49,200 bases of DNA from Candidatus Dojkabacteria bacterium (GCA_025061805.1 JANWZV010000003.1:1-49200); one strand, 5' to 3'; shown: positions 1-19,441, counted from the first letter of the stretch. The notes: generated by a model not told the origin, from the letters alone. Program-made: numbers and translations.

Positions 1-2970
1 TGGTGGGGGAGGTGGTGGAGGAGGGGGTGGTGGAAAAATAATATCTTCTTCAGGTGGAGTATACTCAATACCTTCACAAGTATTTTCCACTATTATTTTT
101 ACTTCACCAATAAATAAATAATTTTTTTCATTATTTGGAACACATTTTTTAACTATAATTTCAAAAAATCCATCATATTCATTTTCACTATTAAAAACTT
201 TGTCCATTAAACCAAATTGTAATTTTATTGAATTTTCTGAATCAAACCCTGTAATAGATGATTTATTTGCAAAATAAAATTTAGAATCATTACTTAATGA
301 ATATATTTGTTTATTTCCACTAGAATCTTGCGTTTTAATTGCTAATGATATATTATTTCTCACTAAATTCTCTAAATTATTTACACTAAAAGAATTATCT
401 TCTAATATTAATTCTCCTTCAATGCATGTTAAATCAAAATCATTTATATTTGGCTCAATTCTCATATTATGAATAGCATCATATTCTTCAACTGGTGTTA
501 CAACAATATGATTATCTAAAGATTTTTTATTTTGAACATATGAAATATAATGAAGTTGTATTCCTTCTTTTTGAGATTCTTGAATTTTTTGATAAACATT
601 ATATGTTAAGATCCAATTACCTTTTTCATCTTGTTCCTGACTTTCAAAAGAAAAATAAGCTGTTGTATTAGAAATATTATTATTATTATATATGTTATTT
701 GGAAAATAAATAGTAATATTTTCAACATTTTCTAAAAATTTACTTTTAATTTCTAAAGTAAATTGAAGATTCTCTTCTACATATTTTTTAACATTTTCAG
801 TAAATAAAAATGAATTTAATAATGATAAATTAGTTGATAAAATGTTATACTCAACAGGTTTATAAATATCTTCTCCACTGTTATAAAAACCTACTGGTGG
901 AGAAGATAAAACAACTGAAGCTGGTTTTTTACTTACAGGATGTAATACATCATGAAATGAAGAACATGATGTTCCATAAACACACTTTACTTCACTTAAA
1001 TTATTCAAATACAATCTTATATTTTGACTTTTTTTGGCAAATATTGTTAATGGACTTGAACTTGATATAGTAATTTTATTTGTTATACATTGTGAATATG
1101 GTGGAGTGAAACTTCCAAATGATGATACAGGGAAAGAAATACTTTCTTCAATTGCTGAAGTAAAGAAATTAAATGTCCTAACATCTAATGCATGACAATC
1201 ATATGATTTTCCCTTTGCTGTATAAACTATAAATAAACTGTCTTTTTCAGCAAATAATTTATACAATTTGTCTTGATTATTAACTTCTATCTCTTCAATT
1301 CTTAATGGTCCTATGATCATTGTTGAATGATCATCATAATCATAATCCGAATGAGAACCATTTTGTTGATCACAAAAATCTCTATCTTCCCAATTCACAT
1401 AATGTTTTTTATATTTACTAACAAAATAAATATTTTTAACTTTTAATTGATTACAATATGTATATTTTCTAAAATAACAATAATAACAACCATTATCACT
1501 AAAAACTAAATTTTGTGATTTTGGTCTTAAAGTAATATTAAAACAATTATCTGGAACAATTTTTTTCAAATAATTTTTAATTGTAGCTTTACCAAATGGT
1601 TTATAATGCCAGTTATATGTGGTATTTAAATAAATTCCTATATCTCTAAAAAGTTCATGATCTTTTTTACCATAAAAATTATAATATGTAGCATTTGCTT
1701 CTGGTAAATATGTTAGAAAACCAGAATTAAATAAACTTGCTGAAATATTTCCATCGTCATCAATGGTATATTCAACCCAATTAGTATTGGAAATTGTTTC
1801 TATTTCTGATGATAAATTTGTTGTAGATGGATTCCAAAAATCTCCTAAAAATGGAGAAGCGGTAATATAAGAAATATTTTGTGGAATATGAACATCGTTT
1901 TTATTAATTCCAAAAAGAATTTGAGTATTTTCCCAAGAAATTTTATTATTTCTATTATAAACATCTTTTTCAGCAAGAATATTATCAATATAAAACACCC
2001 ACGCTCGTAATTTTATTTCATCCGGTTTTGAATAATCTGCTTTAATTTCTTTTCCTTTACGAACTGATTCTGGAATCCTATTATTTTTAGTGTCATGTAT
2101 TTCTCCAGATTGAACTTCATTATTTTTAGTACATATCTTTGTATTTCCCAAAATATCTTTATTAATTTCTGAAGAAATATTTAATGTAAAATAAATTGAT
2201 CCAAATTCCCAATTATATCTATCACCTAAATTATATCTATTATCACCAGAAGACTTTTTATCATTTAAATAACCAATTCCTATATTTTGTGCTAAAGTTT
2301 TTTTAGAAAAATTTCCATTATACCATGTATCAATTTCAAATATTTTATCACTTACTACTGGAACTCCATCAACTTTTTCTGTATTTAAAAATAATAAATC
2401 AAATCCAGAAACTATAATTTTATCATTTTTTAGACTATTTTGTTCAATAAAAACAGTTTGTTTGTTAAATTCATAATAAAATTTTGGAGGATCTATATTT
2501 TGGGAAAATGGAACTAAATAATCTTCATTTTTAATGATATTTAAAATTCCATGATCTTTTCTATAACAAATAAGATTTGCAAACAAAAAATATTTAGCAC
2601 ATTTTTCTTGTAACCAATTAAAAAATACTAATGGAGAAAAAATTTGAGTTTGCTGATTAGTATCATCAACATTTTTTATAACAACATGTTTTGCAAATTC
2701 TGGATCTGGATCTTGTGTCTTTCCTAAATAAATATGTGCAATTTTTCCACTAGCATAAGTATTGAATCCACAAATTGTTTTTGTATTATTATCAGATATA
2801 TTATTTAATTTATTAAGTAAATTATTGTATTTCCCCTTATCAAATATTTTAACATTTTTAAATGTTACACCAAGAGATGGATTAGAATAATAATTTTCAG
2901 CAGAATTTCCTACAACTTTAACTACATAATTTTCAGAAAATTTAATATTTGTATTTTTTTTAAATGACAT
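1..2970 (-). CDS. Large hypothetical protein, probably virion-associated (>=990 aa, truncated by the left window edge)
   Basis: ATG at 2968-2970 (MSFKKNTNIKFSENYVVKVVG...). The frame reads open to position 1 and ends ...TPPEEDIIFPPPPPPPPPPP. It is absent from the ORF track because no stop lies in the window. A TATAAATA late promoter is just upstream. Confidence 0.8.
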   Translation of the reverse strand, partial: MSFKKNTNIKFSENYVVKVVGNSAENYYSNPSLGVTFKNVKIFDKGKYNNLLNKLNNISDNNTKTICGFNTYASGKIAHIYLGKTQDPDPEFAKHVVIKNVDDTNQQTQIFSPLVFFNWLQEKCAKYFLFANLICYRKDHGILNIIKNEDYLVPFSQNIDPPKFYYEFNKQTVFIEQNSLKNDKIIVSGFDLLFLNTEKVDGVPVVSDKIFEIDTWYNGNFSKKTLAQNIGIGYLNDKKSSGDNRYNLGDRYNWEFGSIYFTLNISSEINKDILGNTKICTKNNEVQSGEIHDTKNNRIPESVRKGKEIKADYSKPDEIKLRAWVFYIDNILAEKDVYNRNNKISWENTQILFGINKNDVHIPQNISYITASPFLGDFWNPSTTNLSSEIETISNTNWVEYTIDDDGNISASLFNSGFLTYLPEANATYYNFYGKKDHELFRDIGIYLNTTYNWHYKPFGKATIKNYLKKIVPDNCFNITLRPKSQNLVFSDNGCYYCYFRKYTYCNQLKVKNIYFVSKYKKHYVNWEDRDFCDQQNGSHSDYDYDDHSTMIIGPLRIEEIEVNNQDKLYKLFAEKDSLFIVYTAKGKSYDCHALDVRTFNFFTSAIEESISFPVSSFGSFTPPYSQCITNKITISSSSPLTIFAKKSQNIRLYLNNLSEVKCVYGTSCSSFHDVLHPVSKKPASVVLSSPPVGFYNSGEDIYKPVEYNILSTNLSLLNSFLFTENVKKYVEENLQFTLEIKSKFLENVENITIYFPNNIYNNNNISNTTAYFSFESQEQDEKGNWILTYNVYQKIQESQKEGIQLHYISYVQNKKSLDNHIVVTPVEEYDAIHNMRIEPNINDFDLTCIEGELILEDNSFSVNNLENLVRNNISLAIKTQDSSGNKQIYSLSNDSKFYFANKSSITGFDSENSIKLQFGLMDKVFNSENEYDGFFEIIVKKCVPNNEKNYLFIGEVKIIVENTCEGIEYTPPEEDIIFPPPPPPPPPPP

Positions 2971-9217: not shown

Positions 9218-12200
9218 TTAAATTCTTCCTCTATGTGGATTTAAACTAGCAGCTAATAGTAACATATCAATATTATTATCTTTTGGTGCAGATTGCGCTG
9301 TATAATTATTTGAGTCAATTGATGATTCATTTAATTTTTCAAGAATTTGCTTTTGTGCTTGAGATATTAAATTTGAAAGCTTGTCAATTTCTTGTTTTAT
9401 CGATTTTTCTTGAGCTGTTAATAATGGTCTAGAAATTTCAGAGATAGTTTCATGTGATACATTAACTTTTGGTGTTAAAATTTCAACATTAATTTTTTGA
9501 GATTCTTGTGGTTTTACAATATTAGGTGGTGAAGTATTTATTGTTGAAACATTATTTTTTTCTTCTGTTATTGATTGTATATTTATTTCTGTAGATGTTT
9601 TTGTAATCTTAGTACTATCATAAATAGATAACATTGTTTTTAAATTTTCACTAACAACATTTACTTTTTCAAGAATAATATTTATTTTTTCTGTAATTTC
9701 ATTTTTAGAAGCTTCTTTACTTTCTTCTTCATCTGAAGAAAACCATGAAAATGGATTTAAAAATGATAAAGATTTAGAAACAAAAGAAAGTATTTTATCA
9801 AAAATAGATTTCATAAAATCAAAAACCTTAGAAATAGATGAAATAATTTTATCAACTACATTTTTTAATATACTAATTACAACAGATATTGATTCAATTA
9901 TTTTTTCACCAATAGAATAAATTGTATCAGAAATTGAATTAAATATTTTTTCAATAAATAAAATAACTTTGTTTATAACTAATGCAATATTTTCACCTAT
10001 CTTCTTTATAATATTTGTGATTGTTTCAAACATATTACTAAAGAAAACAGAAATTTTATCAATAATTGATTTTATATAATCAGAAATTGATGAAATAATG
10101 TTTTTAATAGTTTCATAAATTGAAGATATAATCCAAATAACAAAATTTACTATTCTTGATGCTATTTGATAAATTCCTAATAATGTTTGTCTAATGACAT
10201 CAAATATACCACCAAAGAAATCAATTATTTTATTAATAGCAAGTATGAAACTTTGACCAATATTATTAATAATATTTTTAATTGTATCAAATATACCACC
10301 AAAGAAATCAATTACTTTACTAATAATTGTTTTTATATAATTAATGATAGAAACAATTGTGTTTACAATAGTTTCATAAATTGTATTATATAACCAAACA
10401 ATAAAATCTATTATTTTTGTAGCTGTTTGTAAAATATTAGATAAAAATTGTTTAATTGTATCAAATATACCACTAAAAAATTTAATTATTTTATTAATAA
10501 CAGATATAATACTTTCACTAATATAGCTTATAACATTTTTAATTGTATTAAATATATCGCTGAAGAAAGAAACTACTTTATCAATAATAAATTTTATATA
10601 ATCAATAATAGAAAAAACAATATTTTTAATAAATTCATAAATTGAAGAAAAAATATTACTAAAAAATTCTATTATATTTTTTATGGCTTCTGATAATATG
10701 TTTTTTATTGATTCAAAAACACTTAAAATTGGTGTAAGTATTTTTTGAACTAAACTTCTTTGTTCTTCTTTTTTTTCTCCTTTATTTTCTATTGATTCTT
10801 CTTTCTCACCACCAAATATCCAAGAAAAAGGCCAAACAGAACCAATCTTATCAAATATATTACTTATAAAATCCCATATAGATGATATTGTATCTTTAAT
10901 AAATGAAATTACTGGTTCAATAGAAGATGTTATTGTATTCCAAATATTTTTTATTGAATTTCCAATAAAATTAATAAAAGATGCAACATAAGTTTCAATA
11001 TATTCCCAAACATTTTTTAGAGTTTCCCAAATGTTTTTTATAATATTTGAAATAAAATTAATAACAGCCATAACATAAACTTTAATATAATTCCAAACTT
11101 TTAAGAAAAATTCCTTAATTTGTTTCCAATATATAACAACTAAAGTTAAAATGGTACCAACTGCTATAATAATCCAACCAATTATAGGAATAGATGTTAT
11201 TAATCCTGCAACAAATTTAATAATAAAAGTAAAAATTAATTTTAAAAATGGCAATATATATGCAACAAATGCTTTAAATACAGAAACAATGAAAGGCCAT
11301 ATCATTTTTCCAATACTAATAAAGAATGATTTTAAAAATCCACCTTTTCCAAGAAAACTAAATAAAAATGATACAGAATCCCAAATTCCTTTTAACATTG
11401 CAAATGTTTTCTTCACTACAATATAAGTAAAAATACCAGTAATCATTAATAAAATAGTTCCAATAATTGGATGTTCAAAAATTAAAGTTACTAAATTTAC
11501 AAGAAACTTCCAAATATTAGTTAACAAATTTGAAAATAAGTTTTTAAAATGTTTCCAAGCATTTGGCCAATCAAAAGTAAAAATAGACATTATTAAACCA
11601 GCGGCATCTAATATAACATCAAAGAAAACTTTAAAAAATCTGTATATAACCGGAATTAAATCATATAAAGCACTAAATACATTTTTAATAATTTCCCATG
11701 ATAATTTTAACAAAGTTTTTCCAAACCATTTCCATAAAATATAAACTAATATAAAAACAATAACACCAATTACAAAAATCATCAAAAGAGTTGGAATAAT
11801 TGATGTAATTAACATCATAAACATTTTTCCAATTAATGGAATAATAGTTTTTATTCCATGAAAAATAAATTTCACAAAATTAAATAAACCTTTAAAAAAT
11901 GAAGAAAAAAAACCAAAAATTTTTTGAAAAAATGGAAAAATAGATTGTATATGTTCACCTAAACTCAAAAAACCACTTTTTATTTTACTTCCTAAACCAC
12001 TAAAATGTTTAGAAAAATTAGTTTGTAATTTTTGAAAGAAACCTTTTGATGTATCGACAATATTATTTTTTATATCAACCAAAAATTTTCCAAGCGGTGA
12101 TTGAGTGATTTTATTTTGTGGAGCTTCCAAAACTGATGTTGCTTGTGTCTTAATTATATTTTCTTGTATTTTATTTGTTTTACTAATAGTTAAACCACTT

Positions 12201-13081
12201 TTTGGAGTAAAAATATCAACAAATTTTTGTTTAACTACGGAAAACTTATCTTGTAAATACTTTAAAAATTCTGGTTGTTTATCTTGTTTCTTTTCTTTTT
12301 CTTTTGTATCAATAGTTCTAGTTAATAAGCTTGGTTTTTGTTTGCTTTCTTCTGTTGCCTTTTTTATAAATTCACTAATTTTTACATATAATTTATGAAA
12401 TAATGTAAGAAGTGTTGTAAATGTTTTTAAAAATACTAATTTAATAAAATCAAAACCAGATGCAGTAGATAAATTTTGTGATGTTTTTCCTTGTAATTGT
12501 TGAACATAAGATGGTATTTTTTCTATTTTTTCTTTTATGTAGTTAAAAATTTTAAAAGGATTAAATTTTTCTTCTACCTTTTTTTCTTTTTCAACTACTT
12601 TAAAAGCTGGTTGTAAATTTAAAAATTGTTGATTTGGAATATTTTTATTTGTTTCTATTTTTTGAGATTGTAAACTTATATTTTCTTCTAATGCAATAAA
12701 ATTATCTTTAATTTCTTTTTTGTTTTCTTTTATTTCTTGCAAATCTTCATGAAGAGTTTTTTGAGTTTCTATATTTTGTTTTAATAATTCTAAAGTTTGT
12801 TCTTTTTCTTTAGTTATTTGTACTTCTTTCTTATTTTCTGTTGTACCTGATTCAATTTTTGTTTCTTTATTTATTTCTTTACTCTTTAAATCACTACTTG
12901 TTTTTTCAAAAACCTGTTGAGATCTTTCTTCTTTTTTAGAAAAGTATTCTTCTAATGATTCTTTTATAATTTTCTTTAATTGATTAAAATTAAATTCTTT
13001 TGAATCTTCAGTTTTTTCTGGTGGTGAAGCTGGAGGTGGTGGTGATTGTAAAAGCTTATTTGCTATTTCTGGATTTATCAT
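9218..13081 (-). CDS. Tape measure protein (1287 aa)
   Basis: Long amphipathic helical protein with periodic W/F, hydrophobic segments and internal 29-aa repeats. It lies directly downstream of the tube and chaperone-like genes. Confidence 0.85.
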   Translation of the reverse strand: MINPEIANKLLQSPPPPASPPEKTEDSKEFNFNQLKKIIKESLEEYFSKKEERSQQVFEKTSSDLKSKEINKETKIESGTTENKKEVQITKEKEQTLELLKQNIETQKTLHEDLQEIKENKKEIKDNFIALEENISLQSQKIETNKNIPNQQFLNLQPAFKVVEKEKKVEEKFNPFKIFNYIKEKIEKIPSYVQQLQGKTSQNLSTASGFDFIKLVFLKTFTTLLTLFHKLYVKISEFIKKATEESKQKPSLLTRTIDTKEKEKKQDKQPEFLKYLQDKFSVVKQKFVDIFTPKSGLTISKTNKIQENIIKTQATSVLEAPQNKITQSPLGKFLVDIKNNIVDTSKGFFQKLQTNFSKHFSGLGSKIKSGFLSLGEHIQSIFPFFQKIFGFFSSFFKGLFNFVKFIFHGIKTIIPLIGKMFMMLITSIIPTLLMIFVIGVIVFILVYILWKWFGKTLLKLSWEIIKNVFSALYDLIPVIYRFFKVFFDVILDAAGLIMSIFTFDWPNAWKHFKNLFSNLLTNIWKFLVNLVTLIFEHPIIGTILLMITGIFTYIVVKKTFAMLKGIWDSVSFLFSFLGKGGFLKSFFISIGKMIWPFIVSVFKAFVAYILPFLKLIFTFIIKFVAGLITSIPIIGWIIIAVGTILTLVVIYWKQIKEFFLKVWNYIKVYVMAVINFISNIIKNIWETLKNVWEYIETYVASFINFIGNSIKNIWNTITSSIEPVISFIKDTISSIWDFISNIFDKIGSVWPFSWIFGGEKEESIENKGEKKEEQRSLVQKILTPILSVFESIKNILSEAIKNIIEFFSNIFSSIYEFIKNIVFSIIDYIKFIIDKVVSFFSDIFNTIKNVISYISESIISVINKIIKFFSGIFDTIKQFLSNILQTATKIIDFIVWLYNTIYETIVNTIVSIINYIKTIISKVIDFFGGIFDTIKNIINNIGQSFILAINKIIDFFGGIFDVIRQTLLGIYQIASRIVNFVIWIISSIYETIKNIISSISDYIKSIIDKISVFFSNMFETITNIIKKIGENIALVINKVILFIEKIFNSISDTIYSIGEKIIESISVVISILKNVVDKIISSISKVFDFMKSIFDKILSFVSKSLSFLNPFSWFSSDEEESKEASKNEITEKINIILEKVNVVSENLKTMLSIYDSTKITKTSTEINIQSITEEKNNVSTINTSPPNIVKPQESQKINVEILTPKVNVSHETISEISRPLLTAQEKSIKQEIDKLSNLISQAQKQILEKLNESSIDSNNYTAQSAPKDNNIDMLLLAASLNPHRGRI
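9939..10720 (-). repeat. Degenerate 87-nt (29-aa) tandem repeats with 261-nt higher-order period in the tape measure gene
   Basis: Aligned unit positions on the + strand at 9939, 10026, 10113, 10200, 10287, 10374, 10461, 10548 and 10635. For example tcaaatataccaccaaagaaatcaatta occurs at 10200 and 10287, and tcataaattg at 10113, 10374 and 10635. Confidence 0.85.
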
Positions 13082-13117: not shown

Positions 13118-13414
13118 TCACTTTTTGTATTTAAAATCATGTAAACTATTTCTTGACGCATCATCTCCACCCCAAACAGATGCGATGGTCTTGCAGATAA
13201 CTTCTACACATCTCCTGGCGAATTCAAATGTATTTTGAATAAACTCATTTTTATTTTCATTTTCTTTTTCAAATTTTTCTTTAAAAATTTTATAATAATA
13301 TTCAAATTCAACACATGTTAAATTTTCTATATCAGAAATTGTTAAACTAGAACCAGAAAACACAAACAATTCAATAATTTCATTTAATATTTGTTGGTAT
13401 GAACCACTATACAT
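13118..13414 (-). CDS. gp51: Baseplate hub assembly catalyst gp51-like (candidate 'T' part of a tail assembly chaperone)
   Basis: SLTISDIENLTCVEFEYYYKIFKEKFEKENE resembles the gp51-family motif. It overlaps the gp26-like stop as TAATG. Confidence 0.6.
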   Translation of the reverse strand: MYSGSYQQILNEIIELFVFSGSSLTISDIENLTCVEFEYYYKIFKEKFEKENENKNEFIQNTFEFARRCVEVICKTIASVWGGDDASRNSLHDFKYKK

Positions 13415-14196
13415 TAACTGATAAAAAAAACTGCAACATTCGCTTCTTCTTGTGTGTTTTCATAACTACACTTTTCACACTTAAAATGAAATGGAAGTTT
13501 TACACCATAATCCGATTTCTTAATATAATCAATAATTTTATCAAGTTCAGATGATGACAAGTTTTCAAAAAATTCAATTTTTTCTTCTGTTTTTAATTTA
13601 ACTTCACCATAAATATCATCTTTTTTAATAAAAACATTTTGAATAAATCCAGCCATAAGTAAAAATTGGCGTTCAGATGTTGATTGAATCTTTTTATCAA
13701 AAATAATTTTTTCAATTTTCTTTTCTTCTTCTCTTCTCAAAGGACCTAATACAATTTCAACATTTCCATTGAATAAAGAAATTTTATTTTCTATATTAAA
13801 ATCATATGGTTTAATTATTATATTCTTTAAATCAAATATCAAGTCTTTATTTAAATGTTCACAGTTTGGACATTGGTGTACAATTTTTATAGTGTCTCCA
13901 GATGCAGCTCTTCTAATTTCTGCAAGAATTTGGTACCTTTCTTGAACTGTAAGATCGTCTAAAGGTCTATTATCTTCCAATTCTACATATTTTAAGATAA
14001 TTTCATCTAAAACTTTTTGAACCAATTTTTCATCTTTTGATTCAATTGCTTTTAAAAGCTCTTTTTTATCTTTAATTTTTAGTGGTCTTACAAAAGCTTT
14101 TCTCCCAGAATAACACAAATCAACAGAAAATTCAAAATGATGATCACTTTGAACTTTTTTAAGATCTTTAATATCAAAAAATGGTTTGTCGTTCAT
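13414..14196 (-). CDS. gp26: Baseplate hub assembly chaperone gp26-like, with two CxxC motifs
   Basis: FVRPLKIKDKKELL...LTVQERYQILAEIRRAASGDTIKIVHQCPNC...FKCEKC...VFF is the pattern of the gp26 family. Confidence 0.8.
   Translation of the reverse strand: MNDKPFFDIKDLKKVQSDHHFEFSVDLCYSGRKAFVRPLKIKDKKELLKAIESKDEKLVQKVLDEIILKYVELEDNRPLDDLTVQERYQILAEIRRAASGDTIKIVHQCPNCEHLNKDLIFDLKNIIIKPYDFNIENKISLFNGNVEIVLGPLRREEEKKIEKIIFDKKIQSTSERQFLLMAGFIQNVFIKKDDIYGEVKLKTEEKIEFFENLSSSELDKIIDYIKKSDYGVKLPFHFKCEKCSYENTQEEANVAVFFIS
13423..13430 (-). other. Candidate -1 frameshift slippery site (GTT TTT TTT ATC)
   Basis: A run of eight T on the coding strand, phased as T TTT TTT, two codons before the gp26-like stop. 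The -1 frame is open into the gp51-like ORF. Confidence 0.5.
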
Positions 14197-14253: not shown

Positions 14254-14898
14254 TTATACAACAGTGGTATTATTAATTGGAACATAAGAATATTTATCAT
14301 TTGATATATTAGACAATGCTTCAAACACTTTCTTATCAACATATAAATTCTTTGTATCAAATGTTGAATTAATAATATAATAATCATAATCAAATGTTAC
14401 TGAAAATTCATTAATATTTTTTTGGTGGTTTAATTGAATTTCTCCAACTTTTTTAGGAAACATTCCGAAAAATTCATATCCAGTTACTGGTTCACCATTT
14501 TTAGACAATAAAGTGACTTTTACACCATTTTTCTTATAAGAATGTGGAGAGTAAAGAACATCTCTACGAGGATCATAAATTAGTGATTGCCAAGTCAAAA
14601 ATTTATGTCTTAATTTATGATATTCATCACACAAAAAACTTACAGTCCACTCATCAAATGATGCATTATCAGCAAATTTTATTTTTCTTCCATGAAAATC
14701 TATACTAGCATCACCTATATTATAAGAAGGTAAAGATGTTGTTTTAGCCAAAGCAGAAATAGTTAAACTTTCATTTACAGATGTTTCAATAAATGGTATT
14801 GAAATTTGAAATAAACATGAAAAAGAAAGATCTCCAATTAAGTATCTTAAGGTGTGTAAATTAACATTAACAATTTGATTATTTTTTATGTATGGCAC
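14254..14898 (-). CDS. Second tail tube-like protein (gp19/gp54 paralogue)
   Basis: AKTTSLPSY...FHGRKIKFADNASFDEWTVSFLCDEYHKLRHKFLTW...FFGMFPKKVGEIQL...FSVTFDYDYY. Clearly paralogous to the upstream tube gene. Confidence 0.8.
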   Translation of the reverse strand: MPYIKNNQIVNVNLHTLRYLIGDLSFSCLFQISIPFIETSVNESLTISALAKTTSLPSYNIGDASIDFHGRKIKFADNASFDEWTVSFLCDEYHKLRHKFLTWQSLIYDPRRDVLYSPHSYKKNGVKVTLLSKNGEPVTGYEFFGMFPKKVGEIQLNHQKNINEFSVTFDYDYYIINSTFDTKNLYVDKKVFEALSNISNDKYSYVPINNTTVV

Positions 14899-14916
14899 TT
14901 ATCACCCTTTTATTAC

Positions 14917-15567
14917 TTAGGGTTTAGTATAGCTCCCGCTATTAATAGGATTATTTTTGCCAAAGTAAGTTTCAGTTGGTGGTGGTGTTGCACTATCAAT
15001 AAATGACTTAGAAACACCAGTAGCATCATCAACTTTATCAACTCCTACTGAGAAGTAATCATATTGAAAATCAACTGTCATTTTAGCTGGAGAAGCATCT
15101 CCATGACTTAAAGAAACTTCACCACAACCAGTTGGAAAAACACCAACAAACTTATAAGTAACAACTGGTTTTCCAACTCTACTTAATTGTTGAATAGTCA
15201 TATCATCAACTTTATATCTTAACAATGAACCAAAAGTATTTTTTTGAACATCATAGATATCTGATAACCAATTCAATATTCTTCTTCTTAAAACATGTCC
15301 CTCATCAAGAAGAAATTCCAATGAAATTGATCCACCCATTTCCGCCACTGTTCCAACCTTCATTTTCACACCCTGAAATTCTATATCTGCAGTTGAAATT
15401 TTATAATCAGGTAATTTGGCAGTTCTAGCAAAACATGATAAATCTCTTGCACCTTCACTTCCGCTAGCTATAGCTGGAATATTGACAAAGAACAAACATG
15501 GGCGAGAAAAATCACCCAAAATTTTTCTAAACCCATAAAGATTTACATTATTAGTTGGGAATGGCAT
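14917..15567 (-). CDS. gp19: Tail tube protein gp19
   Basis: FSRPCLFFV, RTAKLPDY, FQGVKMKV, QQLSRVGKPVVTYKFVGVFPT, TVDFQYDYF. Immediately downstream of the sheath gene. Confidence 0.88.
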   Translation of the reverse strand: MPFPTNNVNLYGFRKILGDFSRPCLFFVNIPAIASGSEGARDLSCFARTAKLPDYKISTADIEFQGVKMKVGTVAEMGGSISLEFLLDEGHVLRRRILNWLSDIYDVQKNTFGSLLRYKVDDMTIQQLSRVGKPVVTYKFVGVFPTGCGEVSLSHGDASPAKMTVDFQYDYFSVGVDKVDDATGVSKSFIDSATPPPTETYFGKNNPINSGSYTKP

Positions 15568-15598: not shown

Positions 15599-17785
15599 TT
15601 ATACACTAGCATTCTTGCCAACAACTTCAGAGAAGTCCACACCAGTACCTACAGCTGTAAATATAAGTTTAATAAATTCTATGACTCTATTTGGCTTAAC
15701 CAAAATTTCTGCAATAAATTCATTTCTGTCAATAACATCTGGTGTGTTATTTGATTCATCAGCAACAACAAGATAATCTGTCACTCCTCTTCTAGTCTTT
15801 ATACCCTCAAGGAAATTATTAACTAATCCAGCAAAACGAGATCTTGTAATTTCATCATTAAATTCAAAGAGGAAATATCTAGCCATCTTTTCAATGCTTC
15901 TTTCCATATGTAAGAACAATCTACGAACATTAATTCTATCAAATGCTGATGGTTTGGCTTGTAATGTCTTTTGACCCCAAATAACAGTTCCTTGTCCAAC
16001 AAAATTGGGAATTGGATTAATTCTATTATAATAAAGTATATCTCTTTGAGCTTTATTTGGATTTATTGCTACTCTATTTATTCCTGAAATAATACCCCTA
16101 TTCAAACCAGCAGCTGCAAACCAAGGATCATAGTTAAAATCAACTCTGGCAAAAACCGCACCAACATAGCCAGTTACTGGAACCCAACGGAATTTTTCAT
16201 TATAGAAATCAAAAATTTCAAAATATTGTCCGTAAATTGCAGAATAAGAAGAATTAATATTCAATTCTGTATTAACATAATCTGCCATTTTTGTATAAAC
16301 CATTGGTATTGGTTTCGCAGTAGAAACATTCATTATTTTGTTAACTGGAATATTTAATATAGCCATGCAATCTTTTCTAACATTTTTGCAAATATCATCA
16401 AGTGATCTCTTCAAAATTGTTGGATAATCTGGGTCAAGTAAAATATCTATTTCTAATTCTTCTTTATTTACAAAGAATGTTCTCCAACCAAACTCAATTT
16501 CTCCAACTAAATCAAATAGATTTTCTGTCAATGAATCTGCTCCACCCAATTTAACAAATGATGTAGTATAAATGGGTATTCCAGCTGCAGCAATTTCGCT
16601 TTTACCAATTAGGAAGTAAATATAATTACTATTTCCATTTACTAATTCAGGACCAAACATTTTATTACCCATTGTGTCTCTTTTATCTTTTAATTTAGAG
16701 CAAAGATACTTTTCTTGCAACTTACCTTTATAATAAACAAATAAGCAAAATTCATCATCACTTTCTGGTCCATATTCAAATGATGTTAATTCTTCTAAAA
16801 GACCAGAATTAAAATAAAATTCAGTAGCAGAAAGTGAATCTGTTGAAGTATTGAAATAAGCAATTGGCTCAATAAGATCATTTCTTAATGGACATCCCTT
16901 TAAATTATTATTATTTGGATCTTCATAAATAAAATGGGTGCTTGGTGGCGGTGTAAAATTTCCCCAAAAAGCATTATTAAATCCAGAAGTAGCATTAGAT
17001 GGTGCTGCATGAGCATTATAAAATTTATATAATACTGCTTGTTTTTCTCTTTCATTAACAACTTGTGCTACTTCTTGTTTTAGTCTTAATAGTTTTTTAT
17101 AATCTGTTGAACTTACAATACACACACTAACATCTTCATAATATTTTCCAGCGCCAATAGCAGTAAATGAATAATATTCATCAAACTGTTTATATGCATT
17201 CATTGTATCATATGAATAAGGTAAATCTATAGTTTTTACTCCTGGTGTATAATAACCAATTTTGCCTGATCCGCCTGATCCACCTGAACCACCAGATCCG
17301 CCTGAACCACCGGATCCGCCTGAACCACCAGATCCACCAGATCCACCTGAACCACCTGATCCGCCTGATCCGCCTGATCCACCTGAACCACCAGATCCGC
17401 CAGATCCTCCTGATGTATCTTCATAATCTACTACCATTGATAAACCATTTAAATTTAATGAATCATTGGAATCATTAATACCACTTAATCCATAAACAGC
17501 ACTTGCAACCTTTTTTTCTTCATCTTCAACACGTACAACATATAATTGATTAGATCCTTCCAAAAATGCTTTTGCTGTGAAAAAGTGTCTATAATTAACT
17601 TCATCTGGTGGTCCAAAAATATCAACATAATCTTTTTCAGAATTAACAAGAACTCGAACATTAACTGGACCCTTTGTAGCAGCTACAACTATTGCTCCTA
17701 CTGAAGATGTAACTGATGGAATTCTTAAAGATGCATCTCTCTCAATAATATCAACTGTTGGAGAAAGATTTGCTGAACCTGGCAT
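15599..17785 (-). CDS. gp18: Tail sheath protein gp18 with (GGS)16 insertion
   Basis: LSPTVDIIERD, KGPVN, PWFAAAGLNRG, WGQKTLQAKPSAFDRINVRRLF, FEFNDEITR, DESNNTPDVIDRNEF. Confidence 0.97.
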   Translation of the reverse strand: MPGSANLSPTVDIIERDASLRIPSVTSSVGAIVVAATKGPVNVRVLVNSEKDYVDIFGPPDEVNYRHFFTAKAFLEGSNQLYVVRVEDEEKKVASAVYGLSGINDSNDSLNLNGLSMVVDYEDTSGGSGGSGGSGGSGGSGGSGGSGGSGGSGGSGGSGGSGGSGGSGGSGGSGKIGYYTPGVKTIDLPYSYDTMNAYKQFDEYYSFTAIGAGKYYEDVSVCIVSSTDYKKLLRLKQEVAQVVNEREKQAVLYKFYNAHAAPSNATSGFNNAFWGNFTPPPSTHFIYEDPNNNNLKGCPLRNDLIEPIAYFNTSTDSLSATEFYFNSGLLEELTSFEYGPESDDEFCLFVYYKGKLQEKYLCSKLKDKRDTMGNKMFGPELVNGNSNYIYFLIGKSEIAAAGIPIYTTSFVKLGGADSLTENLFDLVGEIEFGWRTFFVNKEELEIDILLDPDYPTILKRSLDDICKNVRKDCMAILNIPVNKIMNVSTAKPIPMVYTKMADYVNTELNINSSYSAIYGQYFEIFDFYNEKFRWVPVTGYVGAVFARVDFNYDPWFAAAGLNRGIISGINRVAINPNKAQRDILYYNRINPIPNFVGQGTVIWGQKTLQAKPSAFDRINVRRLFLHMERSIEKMARYFLFEFNDEITRSRFAGLVNNFLEGIKTRRGVTDYLVVADESNNTPDVIDRNEFIAEILVKPNRVIEFIKLIFTAVGTGVDFSEVVGKNASV
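17264..17413 (-). repeat. Coding repeat S-(GGS)16-G within the sheath gene
   Basis: 144 nt (17267-17410) of 9-nt units GGN GGN TCN with mixed synonymous codons. Confidence 0.97.
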
Positions 17786-17857: not shown

Positions 17858-19441
17858 TTAACCAATTTCTAATTCATTTTTAAATTTTTGCATTTCTTTA
17901 TCAAAATTATCATCAAAATTATCTATAAAAGAATTCAATATTTTTTCATCTTCAATATTATTTTCATTAAAAGAATTTTCTTTTTGCAAAATATAATACA
18001 CATAATCTTCAAAACATCGAGAGCGTAAACAAAAAGCTGCCCAATATCCAGTAGCGACAATATCATCATGAAAATTTTTTCCAACTCGAGCTTGAAATAT
18101 TCCAGTTTTTACTTCCTCAAAATAACTTAGCTCATTAATCATATCAGATGAATTAATAATTAATCTTTGTTTTTCTACATCATCTTTAAAATAAGTTAAA
18201 GCTAATGGTTTTGTTTTTATATTTGAATTAATTCCATACTCTTGACGATCATAATCATACCAAATATTTTCATAACCATCATCATAAAACAAATTATTTA
18301 CAATTGTGTGGCCCAAATTATTATTTTCAATGATAACCAATGCATTGTTATATCTTTTACAAATTTCCAAAATTTTATTTTTAAATTCAAAAATAGAAAT
18401 ATCATTTCTTCTAAAAATTGCAACTTGTTCATATTTTTGTTTATTTGACCAAAATGTAACATCAAAAACATTAGCTACATGAAAATCAGTATTTGATCCT
18501 TTAGCAACATCCACAGAGACAATATAAACATGCTTTTCTTCTGGTGGATTCCAAATATAAAAACCTTCTTCTGGAAAAAATCTTGGTTTTTTAGGATTCA
18601 ATGTTTCCAAAATATCACCATCAATAAGTGTATTTGATGATCCAGTAAATGAACATTCATGCTCTTGAGCAAATTTAACTTTTCCCATTGCAGCTAATTG
18701 TTCTTCTTTCCATTTTTGGTCTCTCTCAGGATGTTTATTCCAAGGAATTTTAGTAGCTTTCCAAAAATTATTTTCACCTCTAATAGCCATTTTCCAAAGT
18801 TCATAAAACTTTCCAGCAGCTCCATTTGGAGTTGAAACAATAATAATATTTCCACCAGTAGAAAGAGTTGGATAATTAGCAACCCAAAAATCTTCTGCTA
18901 TGTTCTCTGGGACGAAAGCAAATTCATCTAAAAATAATAAAGAAACTGATTCACCGCGAATTGCATCTGGATTTGTAGCTCTAGCAAAAATACGGCTTTC
19001 ATTTTCAAATTTAATTTCCAACTGATCATATTTTTTTACACCTAATTTTAACCAAGCTGGTAACCCTTCATATCCCTTTTTTATATCATCAATAATTGAA
19101 ATAGCTGTTGATTGTTTGTTAGCAAGAATTGCAATGTTTTTTGACTGATTAAATAAAGAAAACCAAAGAATATAAATTGCCGCACATGTTGTTTTTCCCA
19201 ACTGCCTTCCAGATAAAACAATATTATGTCTATAATGTGTAAAATTATATAATAATTCTTTTTGATAATCATATAATGAAATAATTTCTTCACCTCTAAT
19301 AGGATGAATAATTTTATAATATTTTTCAGCAAAATAAAAAATATTCTGTGAACATTTCGCCACTTCTTGAAGCATATGTGGAGTAAATTCAAATTTTCTT
19401 CCAGGTTTCAAAATATATTGATCATCATATTTAATTGGCAT
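17858..19441 (-). CDS. gp17: Terminase large subunit gp17
   Basis: LYDYQ adenine-binding motif, Walker A SGRQLGKTT, Walker B LLFLDEFAFV, STPNG coupling motif, nuclease SVDVAKG and HDDIV. Confidence 0.97.
   Translation of the reverse strand: MPIKYDDQYILKPGRKFEFTPHMLQEVAKCSQNIFYFAEKYYKIIHPIRGEEIISLYDYQKELLYNFTHYRHNIVLSGRQLGKTTCAAIYILWFSLFNQSKNIAILANKQSTAISIIDDIKKGYEGLPAWLKLGVKKYDQLEIKFENESRIFARATNPDAIRGESVSLLFLDEFAFVPENIAEDFWVANYPTLSTGGNIIIVSTPNGAAGKFYELWKMAIRGENNFWKATKIPWNKHPERDQKWKEEQLAAMGKVKFAQEHECSFTGSSNTLIDGDILETLNPKKPRFFPEEGFYIWNPPEEKHVYIVSVDVAKGSNTDFHVANVFDVTFWSNKQKYEQVAIFRRNDISIFEFKNKILEICKRYNNALVIIENNNLGHTIVNNLFYDDGYENIWYDYDRQEYGINSNIKTKPLALTYFKDDVEKQRLIINSSDMINELSYFEEVKTGIFQARVGKNFHDDIVATGYWAAFCLRSRCFEDYVYYILQKENSFNENNIEDEKILNSFIDNFDDNFDKEMQKFKNELEIG

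Follow-up and report, generated by a model that had tools for sequence, protein, structure and literature searches.

Gene content of the window and the gp26-like gene

The window analysed here, a stretch of 49,200 nucleotides (49.2 kb) that makes up one whole contig of a 1.63-Mb bin of 192 contigs, carries the structural module of a T4-like myovirus. Its GC content is 23-31% across its length and about 25% overall, all of its genes lie on the minus strand, and its sequence is present in DNA sequencing runs, with no RNA run among those listed, labelled as hot-springs metagenome. A portal protein, a scaffold and a gp23-like major head protein are encoded in the window, together with the following features:

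17858..19441, minus strand: T4-type large terminase gene
15599..17785, minus strand: sheath gene
14917..15567, minus strand: gp19-like tail tube gene 1 (phrog_45)
14254..14898, minus strand: gp19-like tail tube gene 2 (phrog_45)
13414..14196, minus strand: gp26-like gene, 260 aa, probable short chaperone gene (PF12322, phrog_150)
13423..13429, minus strand: slippery heptamer T TTT TTT in the X XXY YYZ phase, inside a T8 run at 13423..13430
13118..13423, minus strand: -1 frame extension of 101 codons plus stop, C-terminal part of a predicted 359-aa long form (TAC-NC)
13118..13414, minus strand: 98-aa ORF with no Pfam or PHROG match
13384..13417, minus strand: possible hairpin 5 nt past the heptamer (minimum free energy structure, suggestive only)
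9218..13081, minus strand: tape measure protein gene, 1287 aa (several PHROG tape-measure families)

The annotated gene order (sheath, tube, tube, gp26-like gene, 98-aa ORF and 1287-aa tape measure protein) bears out the initial annotation, which had placed the pair formed by the gp26-like gene and the 98-aa ORF between the tail tube and tape measure genes. The best PHROG match of the tape measure gene is phrog_1272 (E 6.6e-39), and its product is presumed to be the client of the chaperone. The two tail tube genes (14254..15567, minus strand) are adjacent gp19-like paralogues; their products (214 and 216 aa) both match phrog_45, at E-values of 1e-36 and 2e-35, and the PF06841 scores of both are under the cutoff of that family. 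The KVP40 record also shows a duplicated gp19 beside its gene 26.

The 260-aa product of the gp26-like gene matches PF12322 (T4_baseplate) with an E-value of 2.4e-24 and 86.7 bits (cutoff 24.5), residues 28-258 aligning onto profile positions 10-218 of 219, and phrog_150 'baseplate hub' with an E-value of 9e-23. Its AlphaFold model has a pLDDT of 87.9 and a pTM of 0.80. When the model was compared with 48,161 PDB representatives using VIA-align, the top match of residues about 3-110 was the HK97 tail assembly chaperone 2ob9_B (Z 6.4, rmsd 6.8, 90 residues aligned), where a Z below 8 may mean a common arrangement only; it was followed by YqbN 3klu (Z 6.2) and 3fgx (Z 5.9), and the next match had a Z of 4.5. 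A Foldseek search of the PDB with this model returned no match at E <= 0.001. The modest structural ranking of the N-terminal part of the model fits the chaperone reading, and we consider it likely that the gp26-like gene encodes the short form of a tail assembly chaperone (TAC-N).

In an alignment of 29 homologues, two CxxC pairs (residues 109-112 and 240-243) never vary, and T4 gp26 and gp51 have them too; the second pair is borne by the second half of the protein. This suggests a putative Cys4 zinc site in the PF12322 chaperone family.

On the minus strand, the 3' end of the gp26-like gene reads GCA GTT TTT TTT ATC AGT TAA TG, with the T TTT TTT heptamer two codons ahead of the TAA stop. 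A phase check confirms that this is a correctly phased X XXY YYZ heptamer, as had been noted from the sequence initially. The ATG of the 98-aa ORF (13414..13412, minus strand) has one A in common with the TAA stop, which places the ORF in the -1 frame. It had further been claimed that a -1 slip reads TAT CAG TTA ATG without a stop and in frame with this ORF, and indeed the -1 frame is open for 101 codons. The computed lengths agree with the products originally predicted, 260 aa for the short form and 359 aa (258+101 = 359) for the long form. The 98-aa ORF was also correctly described as having no AGGAG-type Shine-Dalgarno sequence: an AAGGAGG-type 4-mer is found at -20..-4 in 35 of the 41 minus-strand genes, and this ORF is one of the six genes (6/41) without it.

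Poly-T signals of this kind are common at 25% GC. The coding strand of the window contains 31 runs of T7 or longer, in-phase T TTT TTT occurs 15 times in the 14,463 codons of the 41 window genes, and 15 of the 66 Phe-Phe pairs in these genes are written in this way. Only in the gp26-like gene, among all 41, is an in-phase T TTT TTT found five codons or fewer from the stop. Taken alone, the window is thus only slightly above chance, and the weight falls on comparative data.

Conservation of the slip site and of the -1 frame

The DNA of relatives was obtained from 27 viral contigs; the end of the ORF is present in 25 of them, and the other two run off the contig. T TTT TTT is in phase in all 26 sequences that include the ORF end (25 loci and the window). 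Alignment of gp26-like 3' ends, which the initial annotation had proposed as a check on the conservation of the T run and the -1 phase, therefore found both to be kept.

Removal of duplicates left 16 unique sequences of the window's family, with a locus GC content of 25-43%. Among the 30 invariant degenerate amino-acid columns that these sequences share, the two Phe columns of the slip site are alone in being confined to one codon: they are written TTT TTT in 16 of 16 sequences, whereas the two other invariant Phe columns are TTC in 9 and TTT in 7. The codon ahead of the heptamer always ends in T, though the amino acid it encodes varies (V, S, D or N); among the 16 unique sequences it is GTT in all 15 that have Val at this position and GAT in the sixteenth. 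The Ile codon after the slip site is ATC in 15 of 16 sequences, a codon that accounts for 16% of Ile codons in these genes; read in the -1 frame, the C of this ATC opens the Gln codon. A change from AGT to AAC, which replaces Ser with Asn in frame 0, leaves the YQLM of the -1 frame intact. These codon-level patterns indicate that the slip-site nucleotides and the -1 frame upstream of the ATG are under selection.

In all 15 close relatives the T run is exactly T8, and an ATG overlapping the stop (as TAATG or TGATG) is likewise kept in 15 of 15; the run is T7 in the more distant L003/L004 and L026. A protein search covering lengths of 143-455 aa identified 44 homologues of the short form, with 41-77% identity and lengths of 213-278 aa. 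All 44 terminate in FF followed by two residues, and an in-frame fused form of about 359 aa was absent from them within the range searched (up to 455 aa). The FF pair is conserved at the protein level in 45 of 45 homologues and also in T4, where it is encoded by TTC TTT. Since FF is a conserved protein motif, the phase of the heptamer is partly forced.

Several more distant relatives have no ATG at the junction. In L026 (35% identity) the gene ends with GAT TTT TTT ATA AAA TAA, and an 83-aa protein homologous to the 98-aa one is encoded in the -1 frame, with its first ATG at codon 65. L003/L004 (26% identity) end with AGT TTT TTT ACC TAG; here the -1 frame is open for 66 codons, and its first ATG is codon 18. 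Phage C48C1 (Kyanoviridae), which alone was matched in a tblastn search of 50,697 phage records with the 260-aa protein, ends with GAT TTT TTT TAA and has a -1 frame open for 60 codons, only the last 34 of which are annotated, as 'baseplate hub assembly catalyst'. Amino-acid conservation in the extensions of L003/L004 and C48C1 begins at the slip site. In L026, L003/L004 and C48C1 the C-terminal part thus appears to be without a usable start near the junction, which would leave no other route to it.

Eight further named phages were sampled from 692 tblastn matches, which together with C48C1 makes nine. An in-phase T TTT TTY is present in eight of the nine. In six it is T TTT TTC, a T6 run, located one codon before the stop (S-CAM3, P-RSM6, S-T4, ACP17, the Aeromonas phage Asswx_1 and KVP40), and phiM7 has an in-phase T TTT TTT. 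Where these further phages carry the site, the -1 extension measures 55-67 aa.

In Vibrio phage YC (L039, Ackermannviridae), the corresponding gene end at about 1390..1410 reads GCT TTC ATG TAA TG and contains no X XXY YYZ heptamer, and a downstream 68-aa ORF begins at the TAATG overlap. This lineage may use coupling or another route.

The 50-nt segment downstream of the heptamer folds better than 94.5% of local segments of the window, and the fold of this region in the window is ordinary against shuffles (z -0.36). RNAalifold found no consensus structure in 15 aligned junctions. Per-sequence folds have hairpins 5-20 nt downstream of the heptamer, and 11 of the 15 close relatives are in the lowest 6% of local segments. 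Hairpin registers differ among relatives, and we therefore do not claim a stimulator.

The C-terminal extension and related chaperone systems

The 98-aa protein matched no Pfam or PHROG family, phrog_634 included. Its initial label, 'gp51-like', draws on its position and on a weak profile likeness. When the profile of its family was compared by hhalign with a 10-sequence alignment of gp51 C-terminal regions, it gave a weak match (E 0.0029, probability 10.6%, 31 collinear columns), and the comparison of the window's extension family with T4 gp51 alone gave no match (probability 0.14%). Two members of alignment A2, which holds 17 extensions, matched the phrog_634 family (baseplate hub assembly catalyst); because L004 and L029, of the cyanophage type, resemble T4 gp51, we infer that they are these two. 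The extension of the hot-spring clade seems to have passed beyond recognition as gp51. Its 98-aa part is predicted to be mostly helical (pLDDT 79), and homologous -1 extensions are present in 14 relatives. Longer, in-frame fused homologues of the 98-aa ORF were not recovered in a dedicated search, which is weak evidence.

The initial annotation had stated that T4 itself is not known to use frameshifting, and the T4 sequence agrees: gene 26 ends with GAG TTC TTT GAG TTA CTA TAA, which is not slippery, and a TGA is present in the -1 frame. Gene 25 comes next, overlapping gene 26 as TAATG, and gene 51 is transcribed divergently. Residues 1-201 of T4 gp51 match PF12322 (E 3.9e-52), the same family as gp26. 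The phrog_150 profile reaches the end of gp51, but in gp26 and in the window's protein it halts where the protein itself ends, and the last 48 or so residues of gp51 are collinear with cyanophage-type -1 extensions. Since gp51 therefore consists of a PF12322 domain and an extension-like tail, the long form exists as an ordinary protein in T4, and the paralogy of gp26 and gp51 suggests that T4 uses two paralogous genes where other phages use one gene and a slip site. The T4 proteins (gp26, 208 aa; gp51, 249 aa) share with the window's protein the PF12322 domain, both CxxC pairs and the C-terminal FF, and the T4 pairing of gp26 and gp51 corresponds to the short and long forms; T4 differs from the window in having two separate, divergent genes rather than one gene with a frameshift site. 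Table 2 of Leiman et al. 2010 (PMC3004832) lists gp26 and gp51 as hub assembly chaperones, and the same paper gives gp51 as absent from the particle.

A search of the window's own genome identified a single further PF12322 gene, located on a different contig, but no long paralogue of the T4 type; because the bin is 86% complete, the missing paralogue proves little. The further gene (L031, 1268..2619, minus strand) encodes a gp26-like protein of 376 aa that matches phrog_150 (E 4.6e-22) and has an Asn/Lys-rich N-terminal extension of about 105 aa. Its 3' end reads ACT TCT TTT TTT TTA AAG CGT TAA TG, a T9 run in which three in-phase heptamers are nested, the classic T TTA AAG among them, and a 73-aa ORF follows in the -1 frame. 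Next to this pair is an Rz-like spanin pair and not a tape measure gene.

The gpG/gpGT system of lambda resembles the window in having two overlapping ORFs between the tail tube and tape measure genes, a slip site near the end of the first ORF, and a second ORF in the -1 frame without an evident ribosome binding site of its own. The slip heptamer of lambda is G GGA AAG, whereas that of the window is U UUU UUU. There is no detectable sequence similarity between the window's protein and gpG, and the 260-aa short form is about twice the length of gpG, with a second half that bears the putative Cys4 site. Conservation of the -1 frameshift in tail assembly chaperone genes was described by Levin (1993) and by Xu, Hendrix and Duda (2004), as reviewed in PMC5009743.

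Closer parallels are found among T4-like phages. A chaperone frameshift in such phages was reported by Vladimirov, Gautam and Davidson (2022, Virology 566:9-15), as cited in PMC10885494 and PMC12846349, and according to the PRFect paper (PMC10885494) certain T4-like phages do without frameshifting and have a short chaperone gene alongside a longer, fused one. The system shares with the window the PF12322 family, a poly-T slip signal in the 3'-terminal part of the short gene, which our analysis identified in C48C1 and seven of the further named phages, and a location adjoining tube and tape-measure-like genes. The clade of the window has its own peculiarities: the extension is longer (101 aa versus 55-67 aa), the ATG at the junction is invariant and overlaps the stop throughout, and the run is a T8 in place of T TTT TTC. 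A further difference is that the window is a 25% GC contig from hot-spring metagenomes. A similar locus layout is described for the Vandenendeviridae and Andersonviridae in the paper on Pseudomonas phage Adele (PMC12846349, section 3.8.3), where the 3' end of the short gene carries a conserved G-T-run (GTTTTT invariant) and the -1 frame continues without interruption through DNA that the annotation treats as intergenic or gives to a small gene of its own. Both are phage families other than that of the window, and the likeness noted is one of locus layout.

The slip site of the window is real and conserved, and it very probably belongs to a type of programmed -1 frameshift already described for other T4-like phages in the papers cited above. 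Since the poly-T signal and the connection of gp26/gp51 with tail assembly chaperones are also published, no new question is opened; rather, a divergent, very AT-rich hot-spring clade is added to the T4-like phages with a U-run slip site. Phage annotation is corrected as well: the 98-aa ORF, a 'hypothetical' one, most likely encodes the C-terminal portion of a long chaperone form of 359 aa.

Possible routes to the predicted long form

From the comparative evidence, a programmed -1 ribosomal frameshift probably joins the gp26-like gene to the 98-aa ORF and gives rise to short and long chaperone forms. The lambda G/GT-style frameshift proposed in the initial annotation is supported by the slip-site codons, the start-less relatives, the paralogy with gp51 and the modest match to a chaperone fold. 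Most ribosomes would terminate at TAA and release the 260-aa protein, and a minority would slip back by one base, with two tRNA-Phe on U UUU UUU, and go on to read TAT CAG TTA ATG and the codons that follow, producing the 359-aa form, in which the -1 frame supplies the last 101 residues. If the pair behaves like lambda gpG/gpGT and T4 gp26/gp51, the 1287-aa tape measure protein would be held by both forms, tube or hub subunits would be brought in by the extension, and the virion would retain neither form. We infer that the slip is ribosomal and of low efficiency, as we do the protein contacts of both forms. In E. coli, U UUU UUU promotes shifting far less than A AAA AAG does (Atkins et al. 2016, PMC5009743), and the lambda chaperone pair is needed at roughly 30:1 (PMC5009743); the weak shiftiness of U UUU UUU would fit a chaperone pair required at such a ratio. 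Coupled initiation at the conserved ATG may take place in addition to the slip.

The same 359-aa form could be made by standard translation if RNA polymerase added one U on the T8 run. Such transcriptional slippage would account for a run of constant length in the 15 close relatives and for the T9 run in the second gp26-like gene of the assembly, and polymerases are known to slip on homopolymer runs (Atkins et al. 2016, PMC5009743). An 'other mechanism' is also named in the title of Vladimirov et al. 2022, but according to a citing paper (PMC10885494) this refers to separate short and long genes and not to slippage. Because either kind of slippage yields an identical protein, comparative data cannot separate the two mechanisms within the clade. 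The wider family, however, keeps the phased heptamer and not the length of the run, which is T6 in six of the nine named phages and T7 in L003/L004 and L026; the retention of T TTT TTC with six T's is a pattern that favours the ribosome over the polymerase. Moreover, the enriched local RNA structure sits downstream of the run, as expected for ribosomal stimulators. We therefore regard transcriptional slippage as unlikely.

It is rather improbable that no recoding takes place, with the 98-aa ORF a separate gene translated by reinitiation at TAATG and the T run a product of AT-rich coding of Val-Phe-Phe. Translational coupling would be expected to keep an ATG at the overlap, as seen in 15 of 15 close relatives; the same TAATG overlap joins T4 genes 26 and 25 without frameshifting, and Vibrio phage YC has TAATG and no heptamer. 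The conservation of FF in all homologues and the abundance of the heptamer in the window would also be in keeping with such a reading. However, the exclusive use of TTT TTT at the slip site (16/16, versus 7/16 at the other invariant Phe columns) extends to relatives with 33-43% GC, the preceding base is T regardless of the amino acid, and Ile is ATC in 15 of 16. In addition, a usable start is lacking for the L026 homologue of the 98-aa part and for the gp51-type part of L003/L004 and C48C1, and in T4 gp51 the two parts work as one chain. Coupled initiation alone fails since it leaves the codon-level conservation and the start-less relatives unaccounted for. A combined arrangement, which we consider doubtful, would have three products: the short form, the fusion, and a free 98-aa C-module made by termination-reinitiation at UAAUG/UGAUG. 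The C-module might then be a swapped-in one, unrelated to the gp51 C-terminus and perhaps matched to the duplicated tube proteins. That the frame break is an assembly or homopolymer error in a single continuous 359-aa ORF is extremely improbable. Homopolymer runs are error-prone in some sequencing chemistries, but T8 and the frame relation recur in 15 unique contigs from different metagenomes, and the continuous form is absent from the 44 homologues and from the search for longer proteins. In two sequencing runs from two studies, contigs span the T8 run with zero indels, and the T8 run is thus not an assembly slip; one of these sequencing runs may be the window's own source.

Our literature search returned nothing that joins the name 'baseplate hub assembly catalyst' to a frameshift. 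In three of the named phages, the annotated genes that bear this name (34-53 aa) are fragments from the 3' side of a -1 extension that belongs to the gp26-like gene before them and is conserved from the slip site on; they are located as follows:

L029 6786..6890: 'baseplate hub assembly catalyst' piece in C48C1
L032 1465..1599: 'baseplate hub assembly catalyst' piece in S-CAM3
L035 1414..1575: 'baseplate hub assembly catalyst' piece in phiM7
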